From: Gemmatimonadota bacterium
GTDB lineage: Bacteria; JAAXHH01
DNA length: 64,000 nt
Direction of reading: 5' to 3'
Assembly (NCBI GenBank): GCA_026706345.1
Contig: JAPOYX010000198.1
Span: 47,828-111,827 of the forward strand
Shown: piece after piece, positions 30,721 to 61,366 of the stretch
How the letters are laid out: each line of letters opens with the position of its first letter
How positions within the stretch are numbered: position 1 is the stretch's first letter
Notes under the pieces: generated by a model
What the model was told of the DNA's origin: nothing
Database searches by the model: none
What the model saw: only the letters and a program-made list of their open reading frames with translations
Translations under genes and position numbers: made by a program

Positions 30721-30832
30721 AATCTCCCCCTATCTTCCTGTATAATCCCGTTGGCGGGTTCGACGAGATACGGCGAACGATTGGCCTGGACTGAAACAGC
30801 GTGCCCTGACCGGGGAACAAGGAGACTTTCAA

Positions 30833-31507
30833 ATGATTCGCATGGCTTTGACTTCCATGGCGCTTTCCGCGTTATTGCTGCTGACCGGAACCACCGCGCC
30901 CCTGCATGCCCAGCATGACGACCCGAACATGGAATGGGTGATGGACGGCCCCTTGTATGACCGGCTGGGCGGCGAAGAGATGATTATGGGCGTGATCGAT
31001 GACTTCGTTGCCTCGACCGTGGAAGAGGAAACGTTGAAAAGCCACCTCGAAGGAGTCGACCAGGAAGCCTGGAAGGCGGCCCTGTTGGCGCAGTTCACGG
31101 TTGTCTCCGGCGGTGAAATCGAGTACGACGGCAAGAGCTTCAAGGAAAGCCTGGGAGAAATGGGCATCGAGGAAGAGGCCATGGACCTCGTTGCCGAGCA
31201 GTTGACCATCGCGCTGGAGATGAACGAAGCGTGGCCGGAGGACGTGGATGAGCTGCTGGTGGCCCTGGAATTGAAAGAAGCCGAGATGGCGGACGAAGAG
31301 ATGGCGGAAGAGGAGATGGATTCGGACGGCGTAAGCGGGCACGGGGAGCCGGAAGAGGGAACCGGCAACGACAGTGACGGAGAGAACGCGAACGCCGAAA
31401 TGGATACCGACGCCGAAATGGATACCGACGCCGAAATGAACGCGAACGCCGGAATGGATACCGACGCCGAAATGAACGCGGATGCGGAAGACGCCCCGCG
31501 CAAGTAG
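30833..31507 (+). CDS. Secreted protein with a truncated-haemoglobin-like N-domain and an acidic tandem-repeat C-terminal tail.
   Basis: Signal peptide MIRMALTSMALSALLLLTGTTAPLHA. PLYDRLGGEEMIMGVIDDFVASTV resembles the trHb pre-A/B helices (xIYDKIGG...EDFY), but the B10 Tyr and proximal His positions are not conserved. The C-terminal 70 aa are Asp/Glu-rich, with DTDAEM x4 and NANAEM. Confidence 0.5.
   Translation: MIRMALTSMALSALLLLTGTTAPLHAQHDDPNMEWVMDGPLYDRLGGEEMIMGVIDDFVASTVEEETLKSHLEGVDQEAWKAALLAQFTVVSGGEIEYDGKSFKESLGEMGIEEEAMDLVAEQLTIALEMNEAWPEDVDELLVALELKEAEMADEEMAEEEMDSDGVSGHGEPEEGTGNDSDGENANAEMDTDAEMDTDAEMNANAGMDTDAEMNADAEDAPRK
31386..31490 (+). repeat. In-frame 18-bp tandem repeat (GATACCGACGCCGAAATG = DTDAEM) with interspersed AACGCGAACGCC units.
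   Basis: ggataccgacgccgaaatg occurs three times exactly, with an additional degenerate copy. It lies inside the 30833..31507 ORF. Confidence 0.7.
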
Positions 31508-31534
31508 CCGGGCAAGTCTCTCCTATGGGATCTT

Positions 31535-31576
31535 ATGACCGGACGATTGGAGGTGATCGTCCGGTCATTTATGTAT
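31535..31576 (+). terminator. Strong rho-independent terminator.
   Basis: A perfect 13-bp stem ATGACCGGACGAT/ATCGTCCGGTCAT with an 8-nt loop (TGGAGGTG) is followed by TTTATGTAT. Confidence 0.7.
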
Positions 31577-31587
31577 AGGGCGGTTCG

Positions 31588-32364
31588 ATGGCCATAGCGT
31601 ACTTCGATTGCTTCTCCGGTATCAGCGGCGACATGATCCTGGGCGCGCTGGTGGACGCCGGCCTGGACTTCGATACCCTGAACAGTGAACTGAAGAAAAT
31701 GCCCCTCGAAGGCTACCGCCTCAGCCGGTCGACGGTGACCCGCCAACATATCGCGGGAACCAAGGTCGATGTCGCCGTTCGGACTTCGAGCGGCCGGGAA
31801 ATCATCGAAGGACCCGGCGAGGACGGACCTTATCACGACCACGGGGAAGCGAGGCACCTGAGCGACTTGACTTCCGTCATCGAAGACAGCACACTCGATG
31901 CCCCGGTCAAACACCAGGCCGCTCGGGTGTTCGATCAACTGGCGACAGCGGAAAGCGAGGTACACGGCATTTCGAAGCAGGAGGTGCACCTGCACGAAGT
32001 CAGCGGGGTGGACGCCATCGTCGACGTCGTGGGCGCCTGCATAGGCCTGGCCCTGCTCGACATACGACAGGTGTACGCCTCGGCACTGCCGTTGGGACGG
32101 GGGTTTATCCATTGCGCCCACGGCCTGATGCCGGTCCCCGCCCCGGGTGCGCTGGAACTGATGCGGGACATGCCGGTTTACCACACCGGGATCGAGGGCG
32201 AACTGGTTACACCGACCGGTGCCGCGTTTCTGAAAGCCACGGCCGACGGGCACGGTATCATGCCGAGGATGGTGTTGAGGAGGATCGGTTACGGCGCCGG
32301 CACCAAGGATTTCCCGGAGCATCCGAACCTGCTCCGGGTATGTATTGGCGACCCCCTGGATTAG
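31588..32364 (+). CDS. LarC-family (DUF111) protein, N-terminal domain only. It corresponds to the nickel-pincer cofactor LarC1 part.
   Basis: MAIAYFDCFSGISGDMILGALVDAGLDFDTL is the hallmark LarC N-terminus. The ORF ends after 258 aa (full LarC is about 400-420 aa). No LarC2-like ORF follows. Confidence 0.75.
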   Translation: MAIAYFDCFSGISGDMILGALVDAGLDFDTLNSELKKMPLEGYRLSRSTVTRQHIAGTKVDVAVRTSSGREIIEGPGEDGPYHDHGEARHLSDLTSVIEDSTLDAPVKHQAARVFDQLATAESEVHGISKQEVHLHEVSGVDAIVDVVGACIGLALLDIRQVYASALPLGRGFIHCAHGLMPVPAPGALELMRDMPVYHTGIEGELVTPTGAAFLKATADGHGIMPRMVLRRIGYGAGTKDFPEHPNLLRVCIGDPLD

Positions 32365-44609: not shown

Positions 44610-44647
44610 CGAAGCCATGTTTGAATAGCCAAACTTTTCATTGTGCC

Positions 44648-44665
44648 GGCAACACGATTGTTGCC
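44648..44665. promoter_or_regulatory. Perfect inverted repeat GGCAACA-cgat-TGTTGCC between the promoter and the repressor start codon. It is a candidate operator or RNA hairpin.
   Basis: The 7-bp arms are exact reverse complements. It lies 18 bp upstream of the ATG at 44683. A second inverted repeat, GTTTGaatagcCAAAC, lies at 44620-44635. Confidence 0.35.
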
Positions 44666-44682
44666 ATAACGAATCGGACAAA

Positions 44683-45216
44683 ATGATGGATGTCTGGAGA
44701 GAATTCGAGCACAACGAGATCACGCACAGCGGCGCGCACTACCTGATGACGGTGCAGCAGCTGATCGAGGACCAGGGATACGCCCGGGTATCGGACGTGG
44801 CCCGGGAGATGCATATCACGCCGGGCAGTGCGTCGATCATGATCAAGTCGCTCCGGGAAAAGGGATACCTGGAAGAGGACCGGAACCGGTTCCTCAAACT
44901 CTCGGAGGAAGGGAACCGGCTGGCGCAGTCGGTATGGTCGCACCGGCAGATCCTCATCGCCTTTCTCAAGGGCGTCCTGCATATCGACGCGGAACAGGCG
45001 GAAATCGACGCGTGCAAGATCGAGCACCTAATCAGCACGACGACCGGAGAGCGGCTGCTGCTCTTCCTGCAGTTCCTCCTGTCGGACGATCCCCACGGCA
45101 GGGCGTTTCTCAAGTCCTACTGGGACGCCAACGTGCTGTCGATCTGCGACTTCGAAACCTGCGCGGTTTGCGAGGAAGTGGGCGAATGCCTGGTTATCCG
45201 ATCGGAGTCGGCGTGA
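44683..45216 (+). CDS. DtxR/MntR-family metal-dependent transcriptional repressor with an unusual Cys-rich C-terminal tail.
   Basis: N-terminal wHTH (YLMTVQQLIEDQGYARVSDVAREMHITPGSASIMIKSLREKGYL) and a DtxR dimerisation/metal-binding region. The C-terminus CDFETCAVCEEVGEC has 4 Cys and replaces the usual SH3-like domain. ATG at 44683 is preferred over the TTG at 44641 in the ORF track. Confidence 0.8.
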   Translation: MMDVWREFEHNEITHSGAHYLMTVQQLIEDQGYARVSDVAREMHITPGSASIMIKSLREKGYLEEDRNRFLKLSEEGNRLAQSVWSHRQILIAFLKGVLHIDAEQAEIDACKIEHLISTTTGERLLLFLQFLLSDDPHGRAFLKSYWDANVLSICDFETCAVCEEVGECLVIRSESA

Positions 45217-45948: not shown

Positions 45949-47154
45949 ATGCTTCGTAAAACTATCTTCTGGATCCATCTCTCGTCGGGCGTAATCGCCG
46001 GCATTGTCATTCTGATCATGTCGGTGACCGGCGTGCTGCTCACCTTCCAGAGCCAGATCGTCGACTTCGCCAACCGGGAATACGCCACGGTCCATCCTCC
46101 CCATCCCCGTGCCGAGCGCATGGATCTAGACGTGGTGCTCGCGGCGGTCCGGAGCATCGAGCCCGAGGCGGAGCCCACCTCCGTCACCATACGTCCCGAT
46201 CCGACCGAGGCGTACGTCGTGCGATACGGTCGTGCGAAAACCGTCTTCGTCGACCCCTATTCAGGGGATGTCCGGGGCGAAGGCAATATCGCCGTCCGTA
46301 ATTTCCTCCGGGAAATCATGTACTGGCACCGCTGGTTCGGCGCGGAAGGCGAAAACAGGGCGGTCGCCCGCGCGGTCACAGGCGCCTGCAACCTGGCGTT
46401 CTGCCTGCTGACCATCACGGGGCTGTACATCTGGTGGCCCCGCAAGTGGACCCTGGCGGCGTTCAAGGCCGTCTTTGTCCCGAACTTCAAGACGCGCGGA
46501 AAGAGCCGGGATTTCAACTGGCACAATTCCTTCGGCATCTGGTGCCTTCCAGCCCTTTTCCTGATCTCGCTGAGCGGGGTGGTCATCTCCTATCGTTGGG
46601 CCGGTGACCTGGTCTACGCGCTCACGGGTACGGAACCCCCTCAACGGGCTGTGCAATCCGCATCGGAACCGGCAACGCCCGGGGACGAATCCGCACCGTT
46701 GCCAGCCGCTCCCTCCGAATCCTTTCTGGCCGCGGCACGAAAGCAGGTGCCGGAATGGGCGTACATCACGCTGAACCTGCCGAAGGAAGGCGCGGAAACC
46801 ACCACGCTGAACGTATCTGAAATGGATAACCGCATACCGCTGACCCGCTCCACCCTTACCGTGTCCACGACAGATGCAGGGATAGTCGAATGGGTACCTT
46901 TCACCAGCCTGAACATGGGACGACAGATCCGCACCTGGCTGCGTTGGATCCATACGGGTGAAGCGGCAGGATGGTTCGGCCAGCTCATCGCGGGCGTGGC
47001 CTCCGCCGGAGGCGTGGTCCTGGTCTGGACGGGGCTCTCGTTGGCATGGAGACGTTTCCGAAGATTCAACAAAACACGGCAAGACAGGACATTCACGACA
47101 AAGGATATACCAGGAGAATCCGATGAAGAACCAAAGCTTGCTCGCACAGGATGA
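45949..47154 (+). CDS. PepSY-associated TM-helix protein (PiuB/FoxB-like putative ferric-siderophore reductase).
   Basis: MLRKTIFWIHLSSGVIAGIVILIMSVTGVLLTF is the hallmark PepSY_TM N-terminus. It has 4 TM segments with conserved His, and is 401 aa long. Confidence 0.75.
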   Translation: MLRKTIFWIHLSSGVIAGIVILIMSVTGVLLTFQSQIVDFANREYATVHPPHPRAERMDLDVVLAAVRSIEPEAEPTSVTIRPDPTEAYVVRYGRAKTVFVDPYSGDVRGEGNIAVRNFLREIMYWHRWFGAEGENRAVARAVTGACNLAFCLLTITGLYIWWPRKWTLAAFKAVFVPNFKTRGKSRDFNWHNSFGIWCLPALFLISLSGVVISYRWAGDLVYALTGTEPPQRAVQSASEPATPGDESAPLPAAPSESFLAAARKQVPEWAYITLNLPKEGAETTTLNVSEMDNRIPLTRSTLTVSTTDAGIVEWVPFTSLNMGRQIRTWLRWIHTGEAAGWFGQLIAGVASAGGVVLVWTGLSLAWRRFRRFNKTRQDRTFTTKDIPGESDEEPKLARTG

Positions 47155-47524: not shown

Positions 47525-47642
47525 CTGGTCGGCCTGGAAAGCCTGCCCGCATCGCTTTTTATTCCCTTTTAGCATGTATTGCGTTATATTTGGTCTGATC
47601 CGGGCGTGACGGTTTCCCGGTCCTATAGCGACACCGTTTCCA

Positions 47643-49903
47643 TGCCAGAACGCTCCATGGACATGACCGAAACTACCGATACATTCACGGCGCGTGAATC
47701 CGCGTTCGACGTACTCCTCGTCGGCAACCCGAATACCGGCAAGACGTCCGTATTCAATTCTCTGACCGGGCTCCGGCAGAAAACGGGCAACTATCCCGGC
47801 GTGACCGTGGAGAAGAAGACGGGCATCGTGGCGGGGCCGGACGGCGGCACGCTTCGTCTCCACGACATGCCCGGAATGTACAGCCTTACCCCGAAGTCTC
47901 TCGACGATTCCATCGCACGGGAGGTGCTGATCGGGGAAGCGGACGAGAACCTGGACATCCGGCTCATCGTGGTTGTTGCGGACGCCTCGAATCTCAACAG
48001 GAACCTCTACCTGGTTACCCAGCTCATCGACCTCGGCATCCCCGTCGCCGTGGCCATGAACATGATGGACAACGCCGTCAGCAGCGGCGTCCACATCGAT
48101 CTGGACGCACTCTCCGATCAACTGAAGGTCCCGATCGTACCCGTAATCGCTTCACGTCAACAGGGAATAGACGAGTTGCGACAGATGATGTTCGACCAGA
48201 TCGGTCCGGGGGGATCGGAAACGCGGCCAGCCGGATCGCCGGAAGAGGCTGCGCAGGGATCGATCGGACCCGCCTCGGGTCCGGCCAGGGTTTCTTTCGC
48301 CGAACGGTTTCCGCGGCGGCGTCTGCTGGGCGGCCTGCTCGACGAAGCGCTCTCTCCCGCTGCGGCCTGGTTCGGAGCACACACGAAACTGAACGAGGTA
48401 GCGCAGACTTCGGAAGCACTGCGGGTGACTTCGAGCGACCAGGCGCTGCAGACGTGGATGGAAGGCCGCCAGGACGCCTCCTGCAGAGACGACCTGAAAC
48501 GCATCGTGGAGCAGGTGCGGGGCAGGCTGGACGAGATACAGGTGCCCTGGCGGATGCTGGAGACCATTCTGCGGTATGACCAGATCGACGAGCTCTATTC
48601 CAAGGTCGTGCGGGAGGAACGAGATACCCAGGCCAGGCCAAGCGTCCGGCTGGACCGCGTGTTCACCCACCGGGTGGCCGGCCCCGCCATCGTACTGATC
48701 GTGTTCGCACTGGTCTTCCAGTCCATCTTCTCCTGGGCAGAAACGCCCATGACGCTCATCGAGGACGGAGTCGGCGCCCTGGGCGCCTTCGTCTACCAGT
48801 TTCTGCCGGAAGGCCTGTTGCGCAACCTGCTCGTGGACGGCGTCATTGCCGGGGTGGGCGCCGTGCTGGTCTTTCTCCCCCAGATCCTCTTTCTCTTCTT
48901 CTTCCTGGCTCTGCTCGAAGATACGGGCTACATGGCCCGCGTAGCCTTTATCATGGACCGTTTCATGAAGAGCATGGGACTGTCGGGCCATTCGGTCATG
49001 CCGCTGCTTTCGTCCTTTGCCTGCGCGATACCGGGCATCATGGCGACGCGGACGATCTCGAACTGGAAGGACCGCCTGATCACGATCATGATCGCGCCGC
49101 TGATGAGCTGCAGCGCCCGCCTGCCCGTATACATCCTGCTGATCGGCGCCTTCTTCCCGTCCATGACGATTTTGGGCGTATTCACGCTGCAGGGCCTCAT
49201 GCTGTTCACCATGTACATCTTCGGGATTGTCGTCGCTATCGCCGCGGCGCTGGTGTTCAAGCGGTTTTTCATGAGGGACGCCGTTCCCACGAGTTTCGTC
49301 ATGGAACTGCCGCCCTACCGGCTGCCCTCCCTCAAGTGGGTTTTGCTGCAAATGTTCGAACGGGCGAAGGTCTTCGTGACGGAGGCGGGCCAGATCATAC
49401 TGGCCATATCGGTCGTCCTCTGGTTCCTCGCCTCGTACCCGCAACCCGACGACTACGATACCATGTCGTCCAGGTCGCGCATACAACAGAGTTACGCCGG
49501 CCAGCTCGGCCAGCTGATCGAACCGGCCATCGAGCCCCTCGGGTTCGACTGGAAGGTGGGTATCGGCCTCATCACGTCCTTCGTCGCCAGGGAAGTGCTG
49601 GTCAGCACCATGGCCACGATCTACAACGTGGAGGAGGCCGACGAGACCTCGGTCGATCTCCGAACGTCGCTCCAGAACGAGGTGGATCCGGAAACGGGCG
49701 AGCGGGTATACACACCGCTTGTGGCGGTCGCCCTCATGGTGTTCTTCGCCCTGGCCTGCCAGTGCATGGCCACGGTCGCCATCGTGAAGCGGGAGACCAG
49801 CAGTTGGCGATGGCCCATCGTCATGATCGCGTACATGACCGCCCTGGCCTATATCGGATCTTTCGTTGTCTACCAGGGAGGATTGCTCCTGGGATACGGG
49901 TAG
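47643..49903 (+). CDS. feoB: Ferrous iron transport protein B.
   Basis: G-domain motifs VLLVGNPNTGKTSVFN (G1) and NMMD (G4). A GDI/helical domain follows, then the polytopic membrane domain with gate motifs. Length is about 753 aa. Confidence 0.9.
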
Positions 49904-54928: not shown

Positions 54929-56422
54929 ATGGCCGCGGACCGCCCCAACATCATCCTCATCATGACCGACCAGCAGCGGGTCGATACGATCCGCGGCTGG
55001 GACAATCCCCACATGATCACCCCGGCCCACGACAGGCTGGCCGCCGAAGGGGTTTCCTTCCGGGAGGCCTACTGTCCGGGCGCCACCTGCGTGGCCTCGC
55101 GGGCCGCCGTCTTCACCGGCATGTACCCCCATAACACGGGCGTCTACAGTTTCCAGCCCTGGGGAGGCCACCGCAACTGGGTGCAGGACCTGGCTGAGGC
55201 CGGCTACTGGTGCGCCAGCGTTGGCAAGATGCATTTCATGCCCAGAGACATCCCCGGCGGGTTTCACGAGCGGATCGTCGTCGAAAACCCGACCAGCATG
55301 AGCCTGGCCGGCGGCGGCGCGGACGACGACTGGGGCCGCTACATGACCTTCCACGGCGTGGAACGGCCCAACGACCGCCACCTGACGGACCCCGACTGGT
55401 GGACCAGGCTGCAGGGCGTGCCGTGGCACGAGGAAGAGCGGTTCCACAGCGACGTCTTCATTGGAAACTCGGCCCTCAACTGGATCCGCAGCCACCGCGG
55501 CGACAGGCCCTTCTTCCTCGAAATCGGATTTACGGGTCCCCACGAACCCTGGGACCCGCTCCCCCGTCACCTGAGCCTGTACGACGATGTCGAGATACCC
55601 ATGCCGGTAACCCGGGAGAACGAACTGGCGGAAAAGCCGCCCCAGCAGGAAGCGCTGAAGAAGATGTTCTCCACGGCCGGCCACGAGTCCGGCATCAACA
55701 TGTACCTGGCCAACGATGAACGCATCGACCGCATGCGCCGGCACTACTACGCCAAGGTGACTACGGTGGACGAGAAGATGGGGGAAATCCTGGACGCCCT
55801 GGAGGAAAGGGGCTACCTGGACAACGCCCTGGTCATCTTCTGCTCGGACCACGGCGAGAACCTGGGCGACCACGCCCTGGCCTACAAGTGGCTGATGTAC
55901 GACACCATCACCCACATCCCCCTCATCATCCGCTACCCGGACCGCCGGCGCCGGGGCGACCACGTAAGCGACCTGGTCTCCCTCATGGACCTGGGTCCCA
56001 CCATCCTCGAGGCGGCCGGCGTGCCGGTCCCCACCTACTTGGAAGGGCGGTCCTTACAGCCCTATGCCGACCCGGACTCCTCCGTCACGCCGCGGGACTA
56101 CGTCTTCTGCGAGGACAACTACCAGATCATGATGCGCAGCCCGGTCCACAAGATGGTATACTACATTGGCCAGGAGGAGGGCGAGCTATACGACCTGGTG
56201 GCCGATCCCGGGGAGCTGTGGAACCGGTGGTCCGACAGCCGCTACGGGGCAGTCAAGGCCAGGATGAAAGAAGACCTGCTGGAGTGGCTGGCGGCCAGCA
56301 ACTACTGGCACGCCGGTTACAAGCGGGATCGCTCCGCGCAGTATGCCGTGCGCTGGCCCACCGACGACAACGTCAACCTCCAGGGCCCGCCCGCGGAGGA
56401 TGCGGAGAAGCCGGGGTTTTAG
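54929..56422 (+). CDS. Sulfatase-family protein (arylsulfatase-like) with no signal peptide.
   Basis: IILIMTDQQRVD and the active-site segment CVASRAAVFTGMYPHNTG are present. This is a C-x-A-x-R variant of the C-x-P-x-R formylglycine motif. 497 aa. The N-terminus MAADRPNII has no signal sequence. Confidence 0.75.
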   Translation: MAADRPNIILIMTDQQRVDTIRGWDNPHMITPAHDRLAAEGVSFREAYCPGATCVASRAAVFTGMYPHNTGVYSFQPWGGHRNWVQDLAEAGYWCASVGKMHFMPRDIPGGFHERIVVENPTSMSLAGGGADDDWGRYMTFHGVERPNDRHLTDPDWWTRLQGVPWHEEERFHSDVFIGNSALNWIRSHRGDRPFFLEIGFTGPHEPWDPLPRHLSLYDDVEIPMPVTRENELAEKPPQQEALKKMFSTAGHESGINMYLANDERIDRMRRHYYAKVTTVDEKMGEILDALEERGYLDNALVIFCSDHGENLGDHALAYKWLMYDTITHIPLIIRYPDRRRRGDHVSDLVSLMDLGPTILEAAGVPVPTYLEGRSLQPYADPDSSVTPRDYVFCEDNYQIMMRSPVHKMVYYIGQEEGELYDLVADPGELWNRWSDSRYGAVKARMKEDLLEWLAASNYWHAGYKRDRSAQYAVRWPTDDNVNLQGPPAEDAEKPGF

Positions 56423-56427
56423 TCCCT

Positions 56428-58800
56428 TCATCCCCGGACCACGATAAATTCAACCGTCTTCTTATCCGTCCGCTCCGAGTGTAGATCCGTGACGGTCAGG
56501 GTCAGCGTGTACGTACCGGGCTCCAGGTCCTCCGTTACGATCGACGTGTACCCGTAGTCGTCCGCCGACGTACCGCCGTCTTCGAAGGCCACGTAGGTCG
56601 ATTGTTCATCGGATCGCTGGCTGACCAGACGTCCCAGCGCGGTGAGGAATCTCAGGAGGACATTGCGCCCGGGTTCCCTTGCGGCGATTTCCAACTCCGA
56701 ACGAAAACTCGTTCTGCCCGCGGCATCTCGCGTCAGGTTGTAGATCTCGTAATAGAGGAAAACCGGCGTCGAAGGAGCATAAAGTCGTGCGGGGTGAGGC
56801 GTGATATGCAGGCCGTTCCGCACGAGCAGACCCGTACCTTCCGTGGGAACGATGGACGCGGCGAGCTTGATGTCACTCAACAAAACCCGGTCTGCATTGT
56901 AGTCCGAGATATCGAGCGGCGCCGTATAGATGCCGAACTTCCGCGAAAGCGAATCCCGAAGAGCTACCGCGGACCGATAGGCTCCGGGCGGCGCACGGAA
57001 CCGGAAAGCACCCGTACTGAGCTGCAGTTTTTCCTGCTCGGATGCGGGGCGGCGCAAGGGTCCCATTTGAAAAGGTGTGCCCTGAACAAAATTGAAGTCC
57101 TGGTCCTGGAGGGCGATCCGACCTGACAGCCAGGTTCGTTCGCCAAGGCCGTCAGCCACGTTTCCCAACTGGGCTGAAGGAACGCTGTAAGCCACTTCGA
57201 CGTCGGCCTGATCTCCGGTTCCCTTGAAAGAAGCCATCTGATATACGAAGTTGAGCGGATCTCCGCCGTAATCGTGGCGATGGAATTCGGGCACTTTTCT
57301 GATCAGTTCCTCGGCCTGTTTTCGCGGCGTATTCAGGAAGTTGTACGCGAGCCGGTTCGTCGTGCCGAAATTGGTCGCCCGATCAGGCAGGTCAATCACC
57401 TGAAGCGGGTGGTCGAAAACCATTGAATTACGCTGGTCGGTGAAGAATATCTCCAGGCCGAAGGGGACATAGACCCAGCTTTCGGTAGGGAAAGCCACCG
57501 ACTTGGTCGCGCGGCCGGCCCTTGCGCTGAATTCGCCGAAATCCTGATTGGGAGCCCCGGTGTTTACTTCCATGTTGACGCGTTGCCGGCTGACATCGCG
57601 GATCATGTCCACGTCCCGGTTCCCCGTGGGGAATATCGCGTTCACCACGTCCTCCCCCGATTTCAAAATGAAATGCTGCCGGTCGTCCGGATGACCGAAG
57701 CGAACATAGATCTCGCCGCGGCGGTCCCAGGGATCCTTGCCTTTTGAAAAGTGCAGCCTGGAAAATATCATCCTCCGGTAATGTTCCACCAGACGTTCGT
57801 TGATCCGGGTTGTGGGATCAGGATCGCGGGCCGCCCAGTAGGTCCTCCACAGCTTCTCCCTTTCCTGCACCGACGCTTCGCGGTATGCTTTGGCTTCGTC
57901 CGGCGACGCCACACCGGAAAGATCCCTGTAGAGGGCGACCTTTTCGGGATCGATATCCGACAGGACCGCCACGTACCGCCTCATGGCGTGGTACGCGCGT
58001 TCGTGCTGGTCCCGGGCATGATAGTGGTAGGCTTCGAGTTGTCCCGACAGCCCTGCGACAAGTGGATTGGCCTGGACACCCTGCGACTCGGCGACCTGTT
58101 GCAGCAACGCGTATCCCCGGTGAAAGTCCTTTAACTGTATCGCGCAGAAGGCCAGGCGGTAGAGCGCGTCGTCGTGCTCCGGATTCACGGAGGCCTGCCT
58201 GAAGTACCAGTCCAATGCGGTTTCGGGCTCGTCCCTGTCCGCTTCGTAGGCGAACCCCAGTCGAAAGTAAGCGTCCGGATGCTCCGGATTCAACTCGACG
58301 GCGCGCCGGTAAGACTCGTCCCGGATCTTTAATTCCCTCTCGGCCGCCCGTGGCCGGAACGTCGCCAGCCTGATCCTTCCATACGTGCGTCCTCGGTAGT
58401 AGTAAACATCCGCGTTATCCGGCACCAGTTTCCCTGCATCGTCCAAGACCTCTCTCGCGTCATTCTTCTTGTCTTTGAGGATGTATACGCGGGCCAGTTG
58501 GATGAGGCTTTCAACGGATGCGCTGTCGATCTTCAGCGCCTCCTTTACCGCCTTCTCGGCCTCGTCATACCTGCTCTGCGCGTCCAGGACCCGGCTCAGC
58601 CAGTAGTGGGCATCCGCGGATCCGGGCTGTTTATCCAGCAGGTCCCGCAGCGTGGCTTCCGCCCGTTCATAGTCACCCGCGCCAAACTGTTCCCTGGCCC
58701 GTTCCATCGGGGCCTCGCTCTCCTGTGCCGCTACAGCGCCAGGCAACATACCGCCGAGCATGAGGCCCAGAAACAGGGAAACCGTTCTCAGGTTCGTCAT
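56428..58800 (-). CDS. Secreted TPR-repeat protein with a C-terminal GWxTD-type domain (paralog A).
   Basis: Signal peptide MTNLRTVSLFLGLMLGGMLPGAVAAQ. N-terminal TPR-like repeats cover about 300 aa. The C-terminal domain carries WRTYWAARDP...ERLVEHYRR...KDPWDRRGEIYVRFGHPDDRQHFI. Start taken at 58800; the ORF track extends to 58881. Confidence 0.7.
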   Translation of the reverse strand: MTNLRTVSLFLGLMLGGMLPGAVAAQESEAPMERAREQFGAGDYERAEATLRDLLDKQPGSADAHYWLSRVLDAQSRYDEAEKAVKEALKIDSASVESLIQLARVYILKDKKNDAREVLDDAGKLVPDNADVYYYRGRTYGRIRLATFRPRAAERELKIRDESYRRAVELNPEHPDAYFRLGFAYEADRDEPETALDWYFRQASVNPEHDDALYRLAFCAIQLKDFHRGYALLQQVAESQGVQANPLVAGLSGQLEAYHYHARDQHERAYHAMRRYVAVLSDIDPEKVALYRDLSGVASPDEAKAYREASVQEREKLWRTYWAARDPDPTTRINERLVEHYRRMIFSRLHFSKGKDPWDRRGEIYVRFGHPDDRQHFILKSGEDVVNAIFPTGNRDVDMIRDVSRQRVNMEVNTGAPNQDFGEFSARAGRATKSVAFPTESWVYVPFGLEIFFTDQRNSMVFDHPLQVIDLPDRATNFGTTNRLAYNFLNTPRKQAEELIRKVPEFHRHDYGGDPLNFVYQMASFKGTGDQADVEVAYSVPSAQLGNVADGLGERTWLSGRIALQDQDFNFVQGTPFQMGPLRRPASEQEKLQLSTGAFRFRAPPGAYRSAVALRDSLSRKFGIYTAPLDISDYNADRVLLSDIKLAASIVPTEGTGLLVRNGLHITPHPARLYAPSTPVFLYYEIYNLTRDAAGRTSFRSELEIAAREPGRNVLLRFLTALGRLVSQRSDEQSTYVAFEDGGTSADDYGYTSIVTEDLEPGTYTLTLTVTDLHSERTDKKTVEFIVVRG

Positions 58801-58852
58801 GAATCCGCCGTCCTCGAGCAGTCGAGATGAGTGTAGGAATTGAGTGCCGGGC

Positions 58853-61366
58853 CTAGTTCCTGTCCGTGGAGAATTCCGCAACCCGATCGTTGGTCACGAC
58901 AAACACCTTGGTCCGCGCGGCGGTTTGACCGGAATGCAGGTCTTTGACGCGAACCGTCATTTCATAGGCGCCGGTGGGGGTGGCGCCCGTGTCGATGGAA
59001 GTGTAACTGTACTCGTCCGGGCGGTTGCCTTCGTTCTCGAATACGATGAGTACGGACTGTTCGCTGTCGGACCGCCGCACCAGCCGGTCTATCCCCTTCA
59101 GAACACGCCAGAAGAGGTTCCGCGGCCGGTCTTTGTGTTTCACTTCCAGCTCCACCTGGTACGAAGACCGCCCCGATTCATCCAGGGCAAGATTGTATAT
59201 CTCGTAGTAGAAATGAACGGGGTCTGTGCGCTGGTAGAGGCGTGCCGGATTGGGTACGATTTCAAGCCCGTTGCGTATGAAGGGGCCGTCGGCCGAATCG
59301 GCCGGTGCGATGGAGACGGCCAGCTTGATATCGCTCAGCATCAACGCGGCGCCTGTGTACCCGGGAACGGTGTACTCCTGTTCGAATATTCCAATGCGCC
59401 GGGTGGCTTCGTCCCGGATCTCTATGGCGGCGCGGTAGCGGCCAGCAGGCGACTCCATGTCCATCATGCCCGTGTGCAGTTCGATGCCCACCTCCTTAGC
59501 CGAAACGGATACGGGTGGTCGATCGATGGGTCCGATACGCCTGGAGGTCTGGGCTACGCGGTTGTAATCCTTATCCTGAAACACCATATGGCTGTCCAAC
59601 CACGTGCGCATGCCCTTCCCGTCCTCCGCCGTTTCCAGCTGTTCGGCCGGAACCATATAGGAGATCTCTACTTCGGCCAGGTCGTCGTCCCCCTTATAGG
59701 ATACGATGTCGTACATGAATCGCAGCGGCCCGCCGCCGTAGTCGAACGCATAAGACTCCGGCGTCTTTTTCATCAGCTCGGCCGCGATGCGCCGGGGATG
59801 ATACTTGTCCTGGACGACGGCTTCCGTGATGTTCGTCTCGTGCACTTGCAGCGGATAGTCATACTTCCCGACCCCTACCTGATCGACGAAAAACAGTTCG
59901 AGGTCGTGCTCGAGGTATACCCAGCTCTCGGCGAGGAAACCCAGCGCCTGTGCTTTCGCGGATTTGGGCGGGAAGTAGTTGAAGCTTGTAACACGGTGTT
60001 CTTCCAGTTCGGGCAGGTAATCCCCCGCATCGGGATCGCGCGTGCTGCGCGTTGTCGGATCGCTCCACTCCATACCGGCGTTGTCGATCTTCAGACGGTA
60101 TCGCCACATGAAGTTGCGTTCCCGGATCGCATCGATACGGGCGTCGCCGGTCGGCTGGTAGTTCTTCAGGGCGTTCTCGCCGGTCTGCATGATGAAATGC
60201 TGCCGATCGTCGGGTTCCCCGTAACGAATGTAGATACCGCCCCGGCGATCCCATGGCTGCTGCCCCCCCGCGAAATGTTCCCGCGCATGCATGACCCGCC
60301 GGTAGTGTTCCACCAGCCGCTCGTTCACGGGCGTGGCCGGCTGGGGATCGCGGGCCGCCCAGAACCGGCGTCTGAATTCCGCTTTTTCTTCTTCAGATTC
60401 CAGCTTTTCGTATTGCCGGTATTCCTCCTCCGAAGCCACGTAGACGAGGTCCGTGTAATGCGCCCGTTCCTCCGGTTCCGCCTTGGCCAGGAATTCCTCG
60501 TAGGCCTCATCCGCTTCGGCGAATCGATTCTGAGACTGCAGCATCGAGGCCTTGAGTTTGTTGATCATCGTGTGAACATAGTCCGGCACGTCGCCGCTGT
60601 GGGCCTCGGCCACCTGCGTCAGCAGATCGATGCCTTCCTGGTACTGCTTGAGCAGGTAACTGCATCTCTCCAGGTGGTAAAGCGCATCCCGGTGATCGGG
60701 CTTTATCATAAGCTGCCGGTAGAAGAGGGCCAGCGCCTTCTTGTAATCCCGTGAAGGATTTTCGTAGGACAGTCCCAACTGGTAGTAGGCGTCGGGGTGC
60801 AGCGGATTCGCCGCCGCCGCCCGGCTGAAGGATCTCCGGGCCTGCAGGACGTAAAGTGGAGCCGCGGGATCTCTCTTGCTCTGCGTCATGTACGCGATCC
60901 CGAGCATGTAATGCACCTCGGAATACTCCGGATCGTAGCGGAGGGCCTGCTTAAGGCTCTTGCGCGCGTCGACCAGGCGGTTCTTCATGCGCATGTACGT
61001 CCGACCCAGCGCAAAGTGCACATCCGGGTTCTTCCGGTCGTGGCGAACGGCGATTCGCAGCTGTTTCGCCGATTCTCTGTCGTCGCCGAGTTCATAATGG
61101 GCGACGCCAAGCCAGTAGCGGGCTTCACCGGACCTGGACTTGAGGCGGACCGCCTCCTCGAAGACCGTTTTCGCCTCCTCGAATTTCCGCTGGTCGTAGA
61201 GGGACCTGCCCTTCTCCAGGAGGGACTCCAGGGAACGGACGGACTCCGGTTCCGACTGCGCTTCCGACGACGTCCTGACTACGATGGGACTCAGCAGGCA
61301 GCAGGACAGCAGGATTCCAGCGATGATCGTGCGACCCGGGAGCGGCCGCGAAGACAGGGCGGACAT
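58853..61366 (-). CDS. Secreted TPR-repeat protein with a C-terminal GWxTD-type domain (paralog B).
   Basis: 837 aa with an N-terminal signal/TM (IIAGILLSCCLLSPIVV) and TPR repeats. The C-terminus carries RRFWAARDP...ERLVEHYRR...QQPWDRRGGIYIRYGEPDDRQHFI, collinear with paralog A. It lies 52 bp upstream of A on the same strand. Confidence 0.7.
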   Translation of the reverse strand: MSALSSRPLPGRTIIAGILLSCCLLSPIVVRTSSEAQSEPESVRSLESLLEKGRSLYDQRKFEEAKTVFEEAVRLKSRSGEARYWLGVAHYELGDDRESAKQLRIAVRHDRKNPDVHFALGRTYMRMKNRLVDARKSLKQALRYDPEYSEVHYMLGIAYMTQSKRDPAAPLYVLQARRSFSRAAAANPLHPDAYYQLGLSYENPSRDYKKALALFYRQLMIKPDHRDALYHLERCSYLLKQYQEGIDLLTQVAEAHSGDVPDYVHTMINKLKASMLQSQNRFAEADEAYEEFLAKAEPEERAHYTDLVYVASEEEYRQYEKLESEEEKAEFRRRFWAARDPQPATPVNERLVEHYRRVMHAREHFAGGQQPWDRRGGIYIRYGEPDDRQHFIMQTGENALKNYQPTGDARIDAIRERNFMWRYRLKIDNAGMEWSDPTTRSTRDPDAGDYLPELEEHRVTSFNYFPPKSAKAQALGFLAESWVYLEHDLELFFVDQVGVGKYDYPLQVHETNITEAVVQDKYHPRRIAAELMKKTPESYAFDYGGGPLRFMYDIVSYKGDDDLAEVEISYMVPAEQLETAEDGKGMRTWLDSHMVFQDKDYNRVAQTSRRIGPIDRPPVSVSAKEVGIELHTGMMDMESPAGRYRAAIEIRDEATRRIGIFEQEYTVPGYTGAALMLSDIKLAVSIAPADSADGPFIRNGLEIVPNPARLYQRTDPVHFYYEIYNLALDESGRSSYQVELEVKHKDRPRNLFWRVLKGIDRLVRRSDSEQSVLIVFENEGNRPDEYSYTSIDTGATPTGAYEMTVRVKDLHSGQTAARTKVFVVTNDRVAEFSTDRN

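Follow-up and report, generated by a model that had tools for sequence, protein, structure and literature searches.

We describe a globin-like gene located at positions 30833..31507 (+ strand) of a 64,000-nucleotide stretch of contig JAPOYX010000198.1 from a Gemmatimonadota bacterium (positions 47,828 to 111,827), to which we refer as the window. The gene, whose coordinates include the stop codon, encodes a protein of 224 amino acids which is very probably a Sec-exported descendant, destined for the periplasm or the outside of the cell, of the periplasmic group-I truncated haemoglobins (trHb) of the Latescibacterota/Gemmatimonadota lineage: the 2/2 fold has been kept, the haem-ligating histidine has been replaced by leucine, other haem-anchoring positions have been remodelled, and the outcome has then been held under purifying selection. 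The mature protein would comprise three pieces, namely a flexible N-terminal peptide, an acidic globin domain and a fast-evolving polyanionic tail. An initial annotation of this locus, made from the DNA alone, had recognised a secreted globin relative with an acidic repetitive tail; it had missed the invariant QHDDP(D/N)MEW peptide, the acidification of the domain, the conservation across the family, the locus shared with a His-bearing globin gene and the copC/copD genes that lie next to the gene in sister clades.

The similarity to globins is evident both from sequence comparisons and from the predicted structure. Residues 40-147 (30950..31273, + strand) make up a group-I truncated-haemoglobin (2/2) domain with a net charge of -23, which is recognised by the Pfam profile PF01152 (Bac_globin) with 23.0 bits over residues 41-145 when the whole protein is searched, and with 24.6 bits when residues 27-151 are searched alone, the gathering cut-off being 21. 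Against the sequences of the PDB, phmmer retrieves group-I truncated haemoglobins only, with E-values of 1.6e-8 for Shewanella benthica trHb1, 2.4e-6 for cyanoglobin and 2.9e-6 for HbN. An AlphaFold2 model based on an alignment of 71 sequences has a predicted local distance difference test score (pLDDT) above 90 for residues 40-150, and residues 27-39 as well as everything beyond residue 150 are predicted to be disordered. When the PDB is searched with Foldseek, the top match is the trHbN of M. tuberculosis, with a root-mean-square deviation (rmsd) of 1.9 Å over 108 columns and a target-normalised template-modelling (TM) score of 0.77-0.82; indeed, the top 30 matches to the predicted fold are all group-I truncated haemoglobins, at 1.9-2.3 Å. 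The Gly-Gly motifs described for truncated haemoglobins (PMC4720485) are also found, G46-G47 at the AB corner and G93-G94 at the end of helix E, and in the 71-sequence alignment G46, G93 and G94 do not vary, whereas the conservation of G47 reaches at least 90%. The likeness to HbN, S. benthica trHb1 and Synechocystis GlbN extends from homologous sequence and the predicted 2/2 fold to both Gly-Gly motifs, the pre-F Tyr, the B9 Phe, the FG Met-Gly-Ile and the E8 Lys.

A distinct scenario results from the analysis of the haem pocket. The proximal ligand HisF8 has been described as 'strictly conserved' and as a 'trHb hallmark', and basic E10, E4 and F4 (Met or Leu) as haem-supporting positions (PMC4720485). 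In the globin-like protein F8 is occupied by Leu107 (codon CTG, 31151-31153, + strand), which the alignments place opposite His81 of HbN and the His of S. benthica trHb1 and which is flanked by K104, E105 and S106; the Glu or Lys read at this position in the initial annotation has to be replaced accordingly. We have carried out a census of F8 in 438 realigned trHb1 domains obtained from two protein searches and observed that His is present in 329 of them. Among the 82 domains that come from proteins carrying the N-terminal motif discussed below, Leu occurs in 79, His in 2 and Ser in 1, which upholds the earlier view of a secreted globin relative devoid of the proximal His.

The replacement at F8 does not stand alone. 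From the His-bearing relatives to the Leu-type clade, E4 changes from V/L/M/I to Gln, E7 from Leu to Trp, F4 from Met to Phe, G5 from Phe to Met and CD1 from Phe (or Arg) to Leu, and E10, which is basic in 46% of the former, is basic in 0% of the latter, being Ala, Thr or Asp. The Leu clade also shows no variation at further positions of the pocket, namely B9 Phe, E11 Leu, E14 Gln, E15 Phe and G8 Val. The protein thus differs from the group-I haemoglobins listed above by having Leu107 for the proximal His, Gln at E4, Trp at E7 and Phe at F4, by lacking a basic E10 and the B10 Tyr, and, outside the pocket, by its signal peptide, its invariant N-terminal peptide and a polyanionic tail of 77 residues. 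In respect to B10, the Val proposed earlier is correct (Val59), but its use as a sign against haem is not, since Val is also the commonest B10 residue in the His-bearing relatives (119 of 329) and is thus uninformative in this regard. Taken together, the loss of His throughout the clade and the accompanying changes at other haem-anchoring positions make a haem-free globin fold the more likely reading of these sequences. By homology and predicted fold the protein belongs to the trHb1 lineage; as it has neither HisF8 nor a basic E10, a hydrophobic E4 or Met or Leu at F4, by which group-I truncated haemoglobins are recognised, it should on sequence grounds not be filed as a haemoglobin.

The new pocket is not a product of decay. 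For residues 27-147, comparison with 21 orthologues yields ratios of nonsynonymous to synonymous substitution rates (dN/dS) of 0.04-0.18 at dS values of up to 0.8, and this substitution pattern indicates that the gene is not decaying and that the state without HisF8 is under strong purifying selection. In a rough neighbour-joining tree all Leu-type sequences fall into one clade, whose sister is formed by the motif-bearing sequences of the His and Ser types. A decaying haemoglobin relic, or a tail that is a mere assembly artefact, with no function under selection in either case, would be suggested by the missing haem ligand that defines the family and by the low-complexity, repetitive nature of the tail. 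However, this explanation is extremely improbable and effectively refuted by selection and conservation: the domain has a dN/dS of about 0.1 with dS reaching 0.8, about 80 protein clusters and 44 distinct locus-derived proteins from independent assemblies have an uninterrupted open reading frame (ORF), the ribosome-binding site and the 3' hairpin are conserved, Leu at F8 and the other pocket changes are fixed rather than scattered, and repeats of like type recur in independent assemblies with different copy numbers.

Some 80 orthologues are present in metagenome-assembled genomes (MAGs) labelled Latescibacterota or Gemmatimonadota. The family includes about 77 close protein clusters (63-97% identical) from MAGs labelled Gemmatimonadota, Gemmatimonadetes or Latescibacterota, some of them apparently from sponge or coral metagenomes, judging from isolate names and locus tags alone; the nearest species representative is the Latescibacterota MAG Plut_88884. 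More distant members (30-58% identical) come, according to sample names, from other marine, lake and groundwater assemblies. One 156-residue protein encoded on a 2.4-kb contig (P0078) joins the first 61 residues of the family to a PF03054 tRNA-methyltransferase-like sequence and is probably a chimera of assembly or gene calling.

The N-terminal region of the protein evidences a second conserved element. In agreement with the initial annotation, residues 1-26 (30833..30910, + strand) have the features of a Sec-type signal peptide, with R3, the hydrophobic core ALSALLLLTG and the c-region PLHA, and no twin-arginine motif or lipobox is present within it. Cleavage is predicted between LHA and QH by the -3/-1 rule, and all homologues have the same pattern at this site, [V/T/A/S/L]-x-A followed by QHDDP. 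The mature protein would consequently start with the peptide QHDDPNMEW (residues 27-35; 30911..30937, + strand). Among sequences that are only 32-77% identical, Q27, H28, D29, D30, P31 and M33, like A26 of the preceding signal peptide, do not vary, the conservation of E34 and W35 is 90% or more, and the codons of the peptide vary synonymously. A search of 596 Gb of reference genomes with the pattern AQHDDP[DN]M returned 30 matches, 27 of which belong to the globin-like family, and neither the window nor the first nine loci retrieved contained a further copy. This near-exclusivity identifies a family-specific functional peptide and led us to reject a generic signal for sorting or export. Two AlphaFold runs, based on different alignments, assign the peptide a pLDDT of 44-66, so that it is predicted not to be docked on the globin domain; its insertion into the former haem pocket, which we have considered, is supported by neither model. 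The same peptide, as QHDDPDME(W/L), is found in the His-bearing members P0140 and those of the P0137 type and is therefore older than the loss of His.

An invariant His and an invariant Met in a peptide that predates the loss of HisF8 also raise the question of whether the protein is still a haemoprotein, with axial ligands such as His28 and/or Met33, which would act as a hexacoordinate periplasmic electron carrier or as a scavenger of reactive oxygen or nitrogen species. Such a role would suit the surroundings of the motif- and His-bearing relatives, which adjoin genes for a cytochrome c, a NapC/NirT-like protein and a GMC oxidoreductase (locus L036) or for an Fe/Mn superoxide dismutase (locus L035), it has a precedent in cable bacteria, where truncated-haemoglobin domains of the periplasm are joined to pentahaem cytochromes (PMC11976967), and it would be compatible with the retained volume of the pocket (see below). 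Nevertheless, we consider it quite improbable: the loss of HisF8 went along with the loss of the basic E10 and with changes at E4, F4 and G5, positions which all contribute to haem support in this family, several Leu-type members (P0077, P0093) even have an Asp at E10 that would repel a haem propionate, the N-terminal peptide is predicted not to pack on the domain, and no truncated haemoglobin with a proximal ligand other than F8 was found in the literature.

The nearest His-bearing relatives, at about 30% identity, are exported trHb1 proteins, comprising lipoprotein-type and signal-peptide forms from Burkholderiales and others as well as tandem multi-domain forms. They share subfamily and compartment with the globin-like protein, but have the F8 His, the F4 Met and in many cases a basic E10, their net charge is close to zero and they have no acidic tail; P0140 and P0137 are those which also carry QHDDPDME(W/L), P0140 doing so at the same HAD-globin-LarC locus. 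Multi-domain truncated haemoglobins have been reported (Hade et al. 2017, as cited in PMC7475203), and the periplasmic and multi-domain examples that we inspected keep the His. Many proteins with tandem trHb1 domains were encountered (P0088-P0092, P0172, P0174, P0211), with up to 10 domains in the 1882-residue P0089; some of these proteins start with a signal peptide and contain an additional domain at the N-terminus, and a few of their globin domains have Trp, Phe, Asp, Tyr or Thr instead of the F8 His.

The third piece of the protein is its tail. Residues 148-224 (31274..31504, + strand) are predicted to be disordered (pLDDT about 51-55) and have no Pfam match; these 77 residues include 29 Asp/Glu against 3 Lys/Arg, together with 8 Met and 1 His, so that the extreme acidity noted earlier for the C-terminal 70 or so residues is confirmed. 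The tail contains a 15-bp in-frame repeat encoding (E/D)E(E)MA, which Tandem Repeats Finder detects in 2.5 copies (31283..31319, + strand), and an 18-bp in-frame array, which reading in register resolves into six hexapeptide units (31385..31492, + strand) and which the same program calls at 31392-31474 with 4.6 copies and a score of 127. The units are, in order, NANAEM, three DTDAEM identical in DNA, NANAGM and NADAED; hence the 18-bp repeat of the initial annotation stands, and its four copies of DTDAEM are reduced to three. The suspected variability in repeat length is also observed, as tails differ in length and sequence even at 97% identity: the protein P0001, which is 97% identical, is shorter by exactly one six-residue unit. 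Independent assemblies contain the same type of repeat in other copy numbers and the run of identical units spans 54 bp only; the array is not an assembly artefact.

In clade A, which comprises the window and sequences of at least 74% identity, tails range from 18 to 103 residues. They have a common start, KEAE(M/L)xEEEM, and usually a basic C-terminus, for example APRK or GTRK, and their middle parts are wholly different, being built from (EEM/TEGEM)n, (AEMDxD)n, (GGEANAD)n or stretches rich in Ser/Thr/Ala/Asp/Glu. The tails of clade B (56-58% identity; marine metagenomes) are of the type (EGEHEE[A/G])n and contain 5-7 His. The acidity is specific to this protein, whose net charge per 100 residues is -23 as compared to -5 to +2 for 16 neighbouring proteins, and we have for this reason rejected a proteome-wide, halophile-like trait. 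Considering the domain by itself, the net charge is -23 in the window protein, -17 to -20 in clade B and about -5 in HbN, and it is near neutral in clade C (about 42% identity; P0077, P0244 and P0246) and in the His-bearing relatives. Domain acidification is thus limited to the marine clades A and B, which are those with long acidic tails.

Although the haem-ligating His has been lost, the pocket may have kept its size. Summed over 20 pocket positions, the side chains occupy 3156 ± 27 Å3, against 3183 ± 93 Å3 in the His-bearing relatives, which indicates that nothing has grown in to fill a haem-sized cavity. One may envisage a periplasmic carrier or sensor of a hydrophobic non-haem ligand. This could be a lipid or fatty acid, a quinone, a signalling molecule or a tetrapyrrole that is either metal-free or only weakly held; it would sit in a pocket whose walls are now formed by Val, Leu, Trp and Phe together with two invariant Gln, and the tail would serve only solubility or extension. 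The invariance of the pocket positions in the Leu clade at unchanged volume, the superposition of the model on holo-HbN at 1.9 Å and the re-use of the pocket by known non-haem globins, for a fatty acid in sensors of the RsbR type and for a bilin in phycobiliproteins (PMC8717448), all point in this direction. On the other hand, AlphaFold models tend to look holo-like with or without a ligand, no neighbour in the window points to a lipid or tetrapyrrole pathway, and the invariant N-terminal peptide and the extreme acidification would be left unexplained; overall we regard such a carrier or sensor as rather unlikely and rank it slightly behind the binding of cations discussed below.

The non-haem globin families known so far, that is the RsbR type, the phycobiliproteins and photoglobin, are all 3-on-3 (PMC8717448, PMC7475203). 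Like the globin-like protein, the RsbR N-terminal domain, the sporulation sensors of B. anthracis, the phycobiliproteins and photoglobin have lost the haem-ligating His and been conserved for another role; unlike it, they are cytoplasmic or thylakoid-associated, whereas the present protein is predicted to be 2-on-2 and exported. None of them is related to it in sequence: no Pfam match to the RsbR-type, phycobiliprotein or photoglobin families was obtained at E ≤ 10, and the significant fold matches are all to 2-on-2 truncated haemoglobins.

The explanation that we favour overall is that the exported, remodelled globin has been neofunctionalised as a non-haem periplasmic protein for binding or buffering, possibly of metal cations, a proposal that we put forward as tentative and rate at somewhat less than an even chance; the narrower assignment to the binding or buffering of cations, in the way outlined next, is more doubtful still. 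Under this explanation the protein would no longer act through haem iron. The N-terminal peptide, with its His, Asp, Met and Trp, could provide a specific metal site, for which copper would be the leading candidate, and the acidic surface and the tail, in which Met abounds in some lineages and His and Glu in the sister clade linked to copCD, would add a low-affinity capacity for cations. The globin domain would serve as a stable framework, and its hydrophobic cavity might still accommodate a small ligand. Metal binding and the carriage of a hydrophobic ligand are not mutually exclusive.

Comparable elements are known from metal-binding proteins and peptides. Cu(II) is bound by peptides with an N-terminal X-His, for example GHK, and Cu(I) by sites composed of His, Met and Trp, for example that of CusF; SilE and PcoE belong to the disordered periplasmic proteins, rich in Met and His, that buffer Ag and Cu. 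The globin-like protein resembles SilE, PcoE and CopC/CusF in its presumed periplasmic location, in having low-complexity segments rich in Met, His and acidic residues and in the combination of His, Met and Trp within a short peptide; it has no sequence similarity to them, and its Met residues are spaced by 5-6 residues rather than arranged as HxxM/MxxH. The whole protein, the N-terminal motif and the tails gave no Pfam or NCBIfam match to copper proteins, and neither motif nor tails were found to resemble any solved structure or Pfam family.

The link between the globin-like gene and copper genes is no more than suggestive. It derives from the His-containing tails of clade B and from the genes that lie between the globin gene and the LarC-like gene that follows it, which, directly downstream of the globin gene, are copC-copD in clade B and copC in clade C; nothing is inserted there in clade A or in P0093 and P0240, and an Fe/Mn superoxide dismutase gene occupies the interval at the His-bearing locus L035. 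Several observations weigh against a cation- or copper-binding role. No copC/copD is found at clade A loci and no copper gene was found in the 64-kb window, and in every lineage examined a terminator-like hairpin follows the globin gene, separating it from the adjacent copC. The copper ligands of CopC are His1 and DGH in L030 (6667-7853) and Gln1 and DGH in L050 (4731-5105), and the proteins of L032 (6528-6905), L061 (963-1337) and L062 (5562-5936) start with Gln1 and lack a D-x-H; only CopC of clade B1 combines His1 and D-x-H into the canonical site, and most of the adjacent CopC are not canonical Cu(II)-binding proteins. As the neighbourhood is syntenic throughout, the adjacency of copC may be historical rather than functional, and the hairpins between the genes, the ligand-poor CopC and the absence from clade A weaken a copC/copD operon as firm functional evidence. 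The protein itself raises further difficulties. A Gln at the N-terminus can be converted into pyroglutamate by cyclisation, and an amino-terminal Cu(II) site of the X-His kind would thereby be blocked; the N-terminal peptide is older than the loss of His, and its role need not be tied to a non-haem function; in clade A tails neither the Met (0-10) nor the His (0-2) content is conserved, whereas acidity and low complexity are; and with its volume kept the haem-sized cavity may persist, which fits ligand binding equally well as a mere scaffold.

The locus as a whole is a housekeeping stretch of the chromosome. In the window, genes for Lon, ClpXP, trigger factor, HrcA-GrpE-DnaJ, MutS2, AhpC, DnaG and two Cof-type HAD phosphatases precede the globin-like gene, and an N-terminal-only LarC, HPS-PHI, BamA, TamB, GlnE, a DtxR-like repressor, a PepSY_TM protein, FeoB, a sulfatase and two TPR proteins follow; no second globin gene was found within the 64 kb. 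Nearly all lineages have retained the order HAD-HAD-globin-...-LarC, the exception being the commoner His-bearing type, P0137, which lies at a different locus. The order is common to the Leu forms, to the form with Ser at F8 (L066) and to one His-bearing form (L035, P0140). At the latter (L035 1338-2701) the His- and motif-bearing P0140 lies between the HAD phosphatase gene and LarC and is followed by the superoxide dismutase gene, a neighbour which hints that the ancestral haem form may have acted in oxidative stress. In the P0137-type neighbourhood (L036 5292-10273; L034) the globin gene is accompanied by a RidA-like gene and by genes for a cytochrome c, a NapC/NirT-like multihaem protein and a GMC oxidoreductase with a Tat-signal (twin-arginine translocation) subunit, which may constitute a periplasmic electron-transfer module that includes the truncated haemoglobin.

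The LarC-like gene of the window (31588-32364; Pfam Ni_insertion) encodes 258 residues that cover positions 1-234 of a 375-position profile; no C-terminal LarC part follows it, the genes for HPS and PHI coming next. Its counterparts in other lineages, which encode 258-317 residues, lie downstream of the globin-like gene almost everywhere. An iron-related cluster is found 13 kb downstream, not adjacent to the globin-like gene, with the DtxR-like repressor at 44641-45216, the PepSY-associated membrane protein at 45949-47154 and FeoB at 47579-49903. Further on, the sulfatase (54929-56422) and the two TPR-repeat proteins of about 800 residues (56428-61366, - strand) belong to gene types that have been reported as enriched in sponge symbionts.

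As to the gene itself, the GC content by codon position is 0.66/0.36/0.77, which fits a real gene in a window of 62% GC, and an identical protein has been called as a gene on the ENA contig ROBB21-1_SAMN13943208 scaffold_476. The start assigned in the initial annotation, which had given 30833-31576, is retained, and the end is moved, given that the ORF stops at 31507 and that 31576 takes in the 3' hairpin. An antisense ORF of 497 residues that spans the globin-like and LarC genes (30829-32322, - strand) was dismissed as spurious: its weaker codon-position periodicity (0.57/0.54/0.71) marks it as a by-product of high GC.

Upstream of the gene, an extended -10-like element, TGTATAAT, was read from the sequence at 30739..30746 (+ strand) and would function as a promoter. 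The initial annotation had proposed a promoter with such an element near 30775, about 35 nt away from its actual position. It is identical in 4 of 11 aligned clade A loci, differs by 1-2 bases in six and is lost in L007. A scan with the sigma-70 consensus found no -35 partner at 16-18 nt, so that a full sigma-70 promoter was rejected, the extended -10 being present alone. The ribosome-binding site AAGGAG (30819..30824, + strand), 8 nt upstream of the ATG, is invariant in clade A, and a conserved leader block, GGACTGAAACAACG...CCCCGACCGGGG-ACAAGGAGA (30790-30826), which is common to the clade A loci, ends at this site. A riboswitch or other known RNA is supported neither for the leader nor for the 3' hairpin, in that neither the conserved 80-nt leader nor the hairpin has an Rfam match at E ≤ 1 and the leader is not predicted to fold better than shuffled sequence (z = +1.2).

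Downstream, a hairpin scan detects a terminator-like stem-loop of 15 pairs followed by TTATGTAT (31535..31568, + strand). This hairpin, ATGACCGG...CCGGTCAT, is unique in the window and occurs as a single copy directly after the globin-like gene in 17 of 67 loci, all of clades A and B; besides the window, it is found in L030, L042, L045, L050 and 12 clade A loci. The sequence of its outer stem is conserved and the inner stem has compensatory changes in L029 and L050, a degree of conservation which exceeds what a plain terminator needs. With a second terminator-like hairpin upstream and this conserved, gene-specific one downstream, the gene is bracketed on both sides, in line with the monocistronic unit proposed earlier.

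A published description of this family, of any His-less truncated-haemoglobin family or of a link between globins and CopC was not found in the literature, nor was any family of 2/2 globins that does without haem. In surveys of globins the proximal His serves to define truncated haemoglobins, so that a family such as this one drops out before it is ever examined; the survey in PMC4720485 discarded sequences without HisF8 or longer than 160 residues. The possibility is nearly, though not quite, an even one that we are dealing with the first conserved non-haem family in the 2-on-2 fold, a haem-free polyanionic periplasmic protein of marine and sponge-associated Latescibacterota/Gemmatimonadota, whose activity would reside in the N-terminal peptide and the hypervariable tail and which would serve as a metal (perhaps copper) chaperone or buffer or as a ligand carrier. 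If it were a plain scaffold with no special chemistry, the protein would be a modest curiosity. If true, a conserved, exported, His-less 2-on-2 globin would extend the list of non-haem globins given in the reviews consulted, which holds three families, all of them 3-on-3 (PMC8717448). The N-terminal peptide is a short candidate for a new metal-binding or partner-binding motif, and the hypervariable acidic tail an example of fast repeat turnover in a surface or periplasmic protein of a symbiont. The locus also offers a natural experiment, in which one His-bearing form (L035, P0140) and His-less forms occupy the same place in related genomes.

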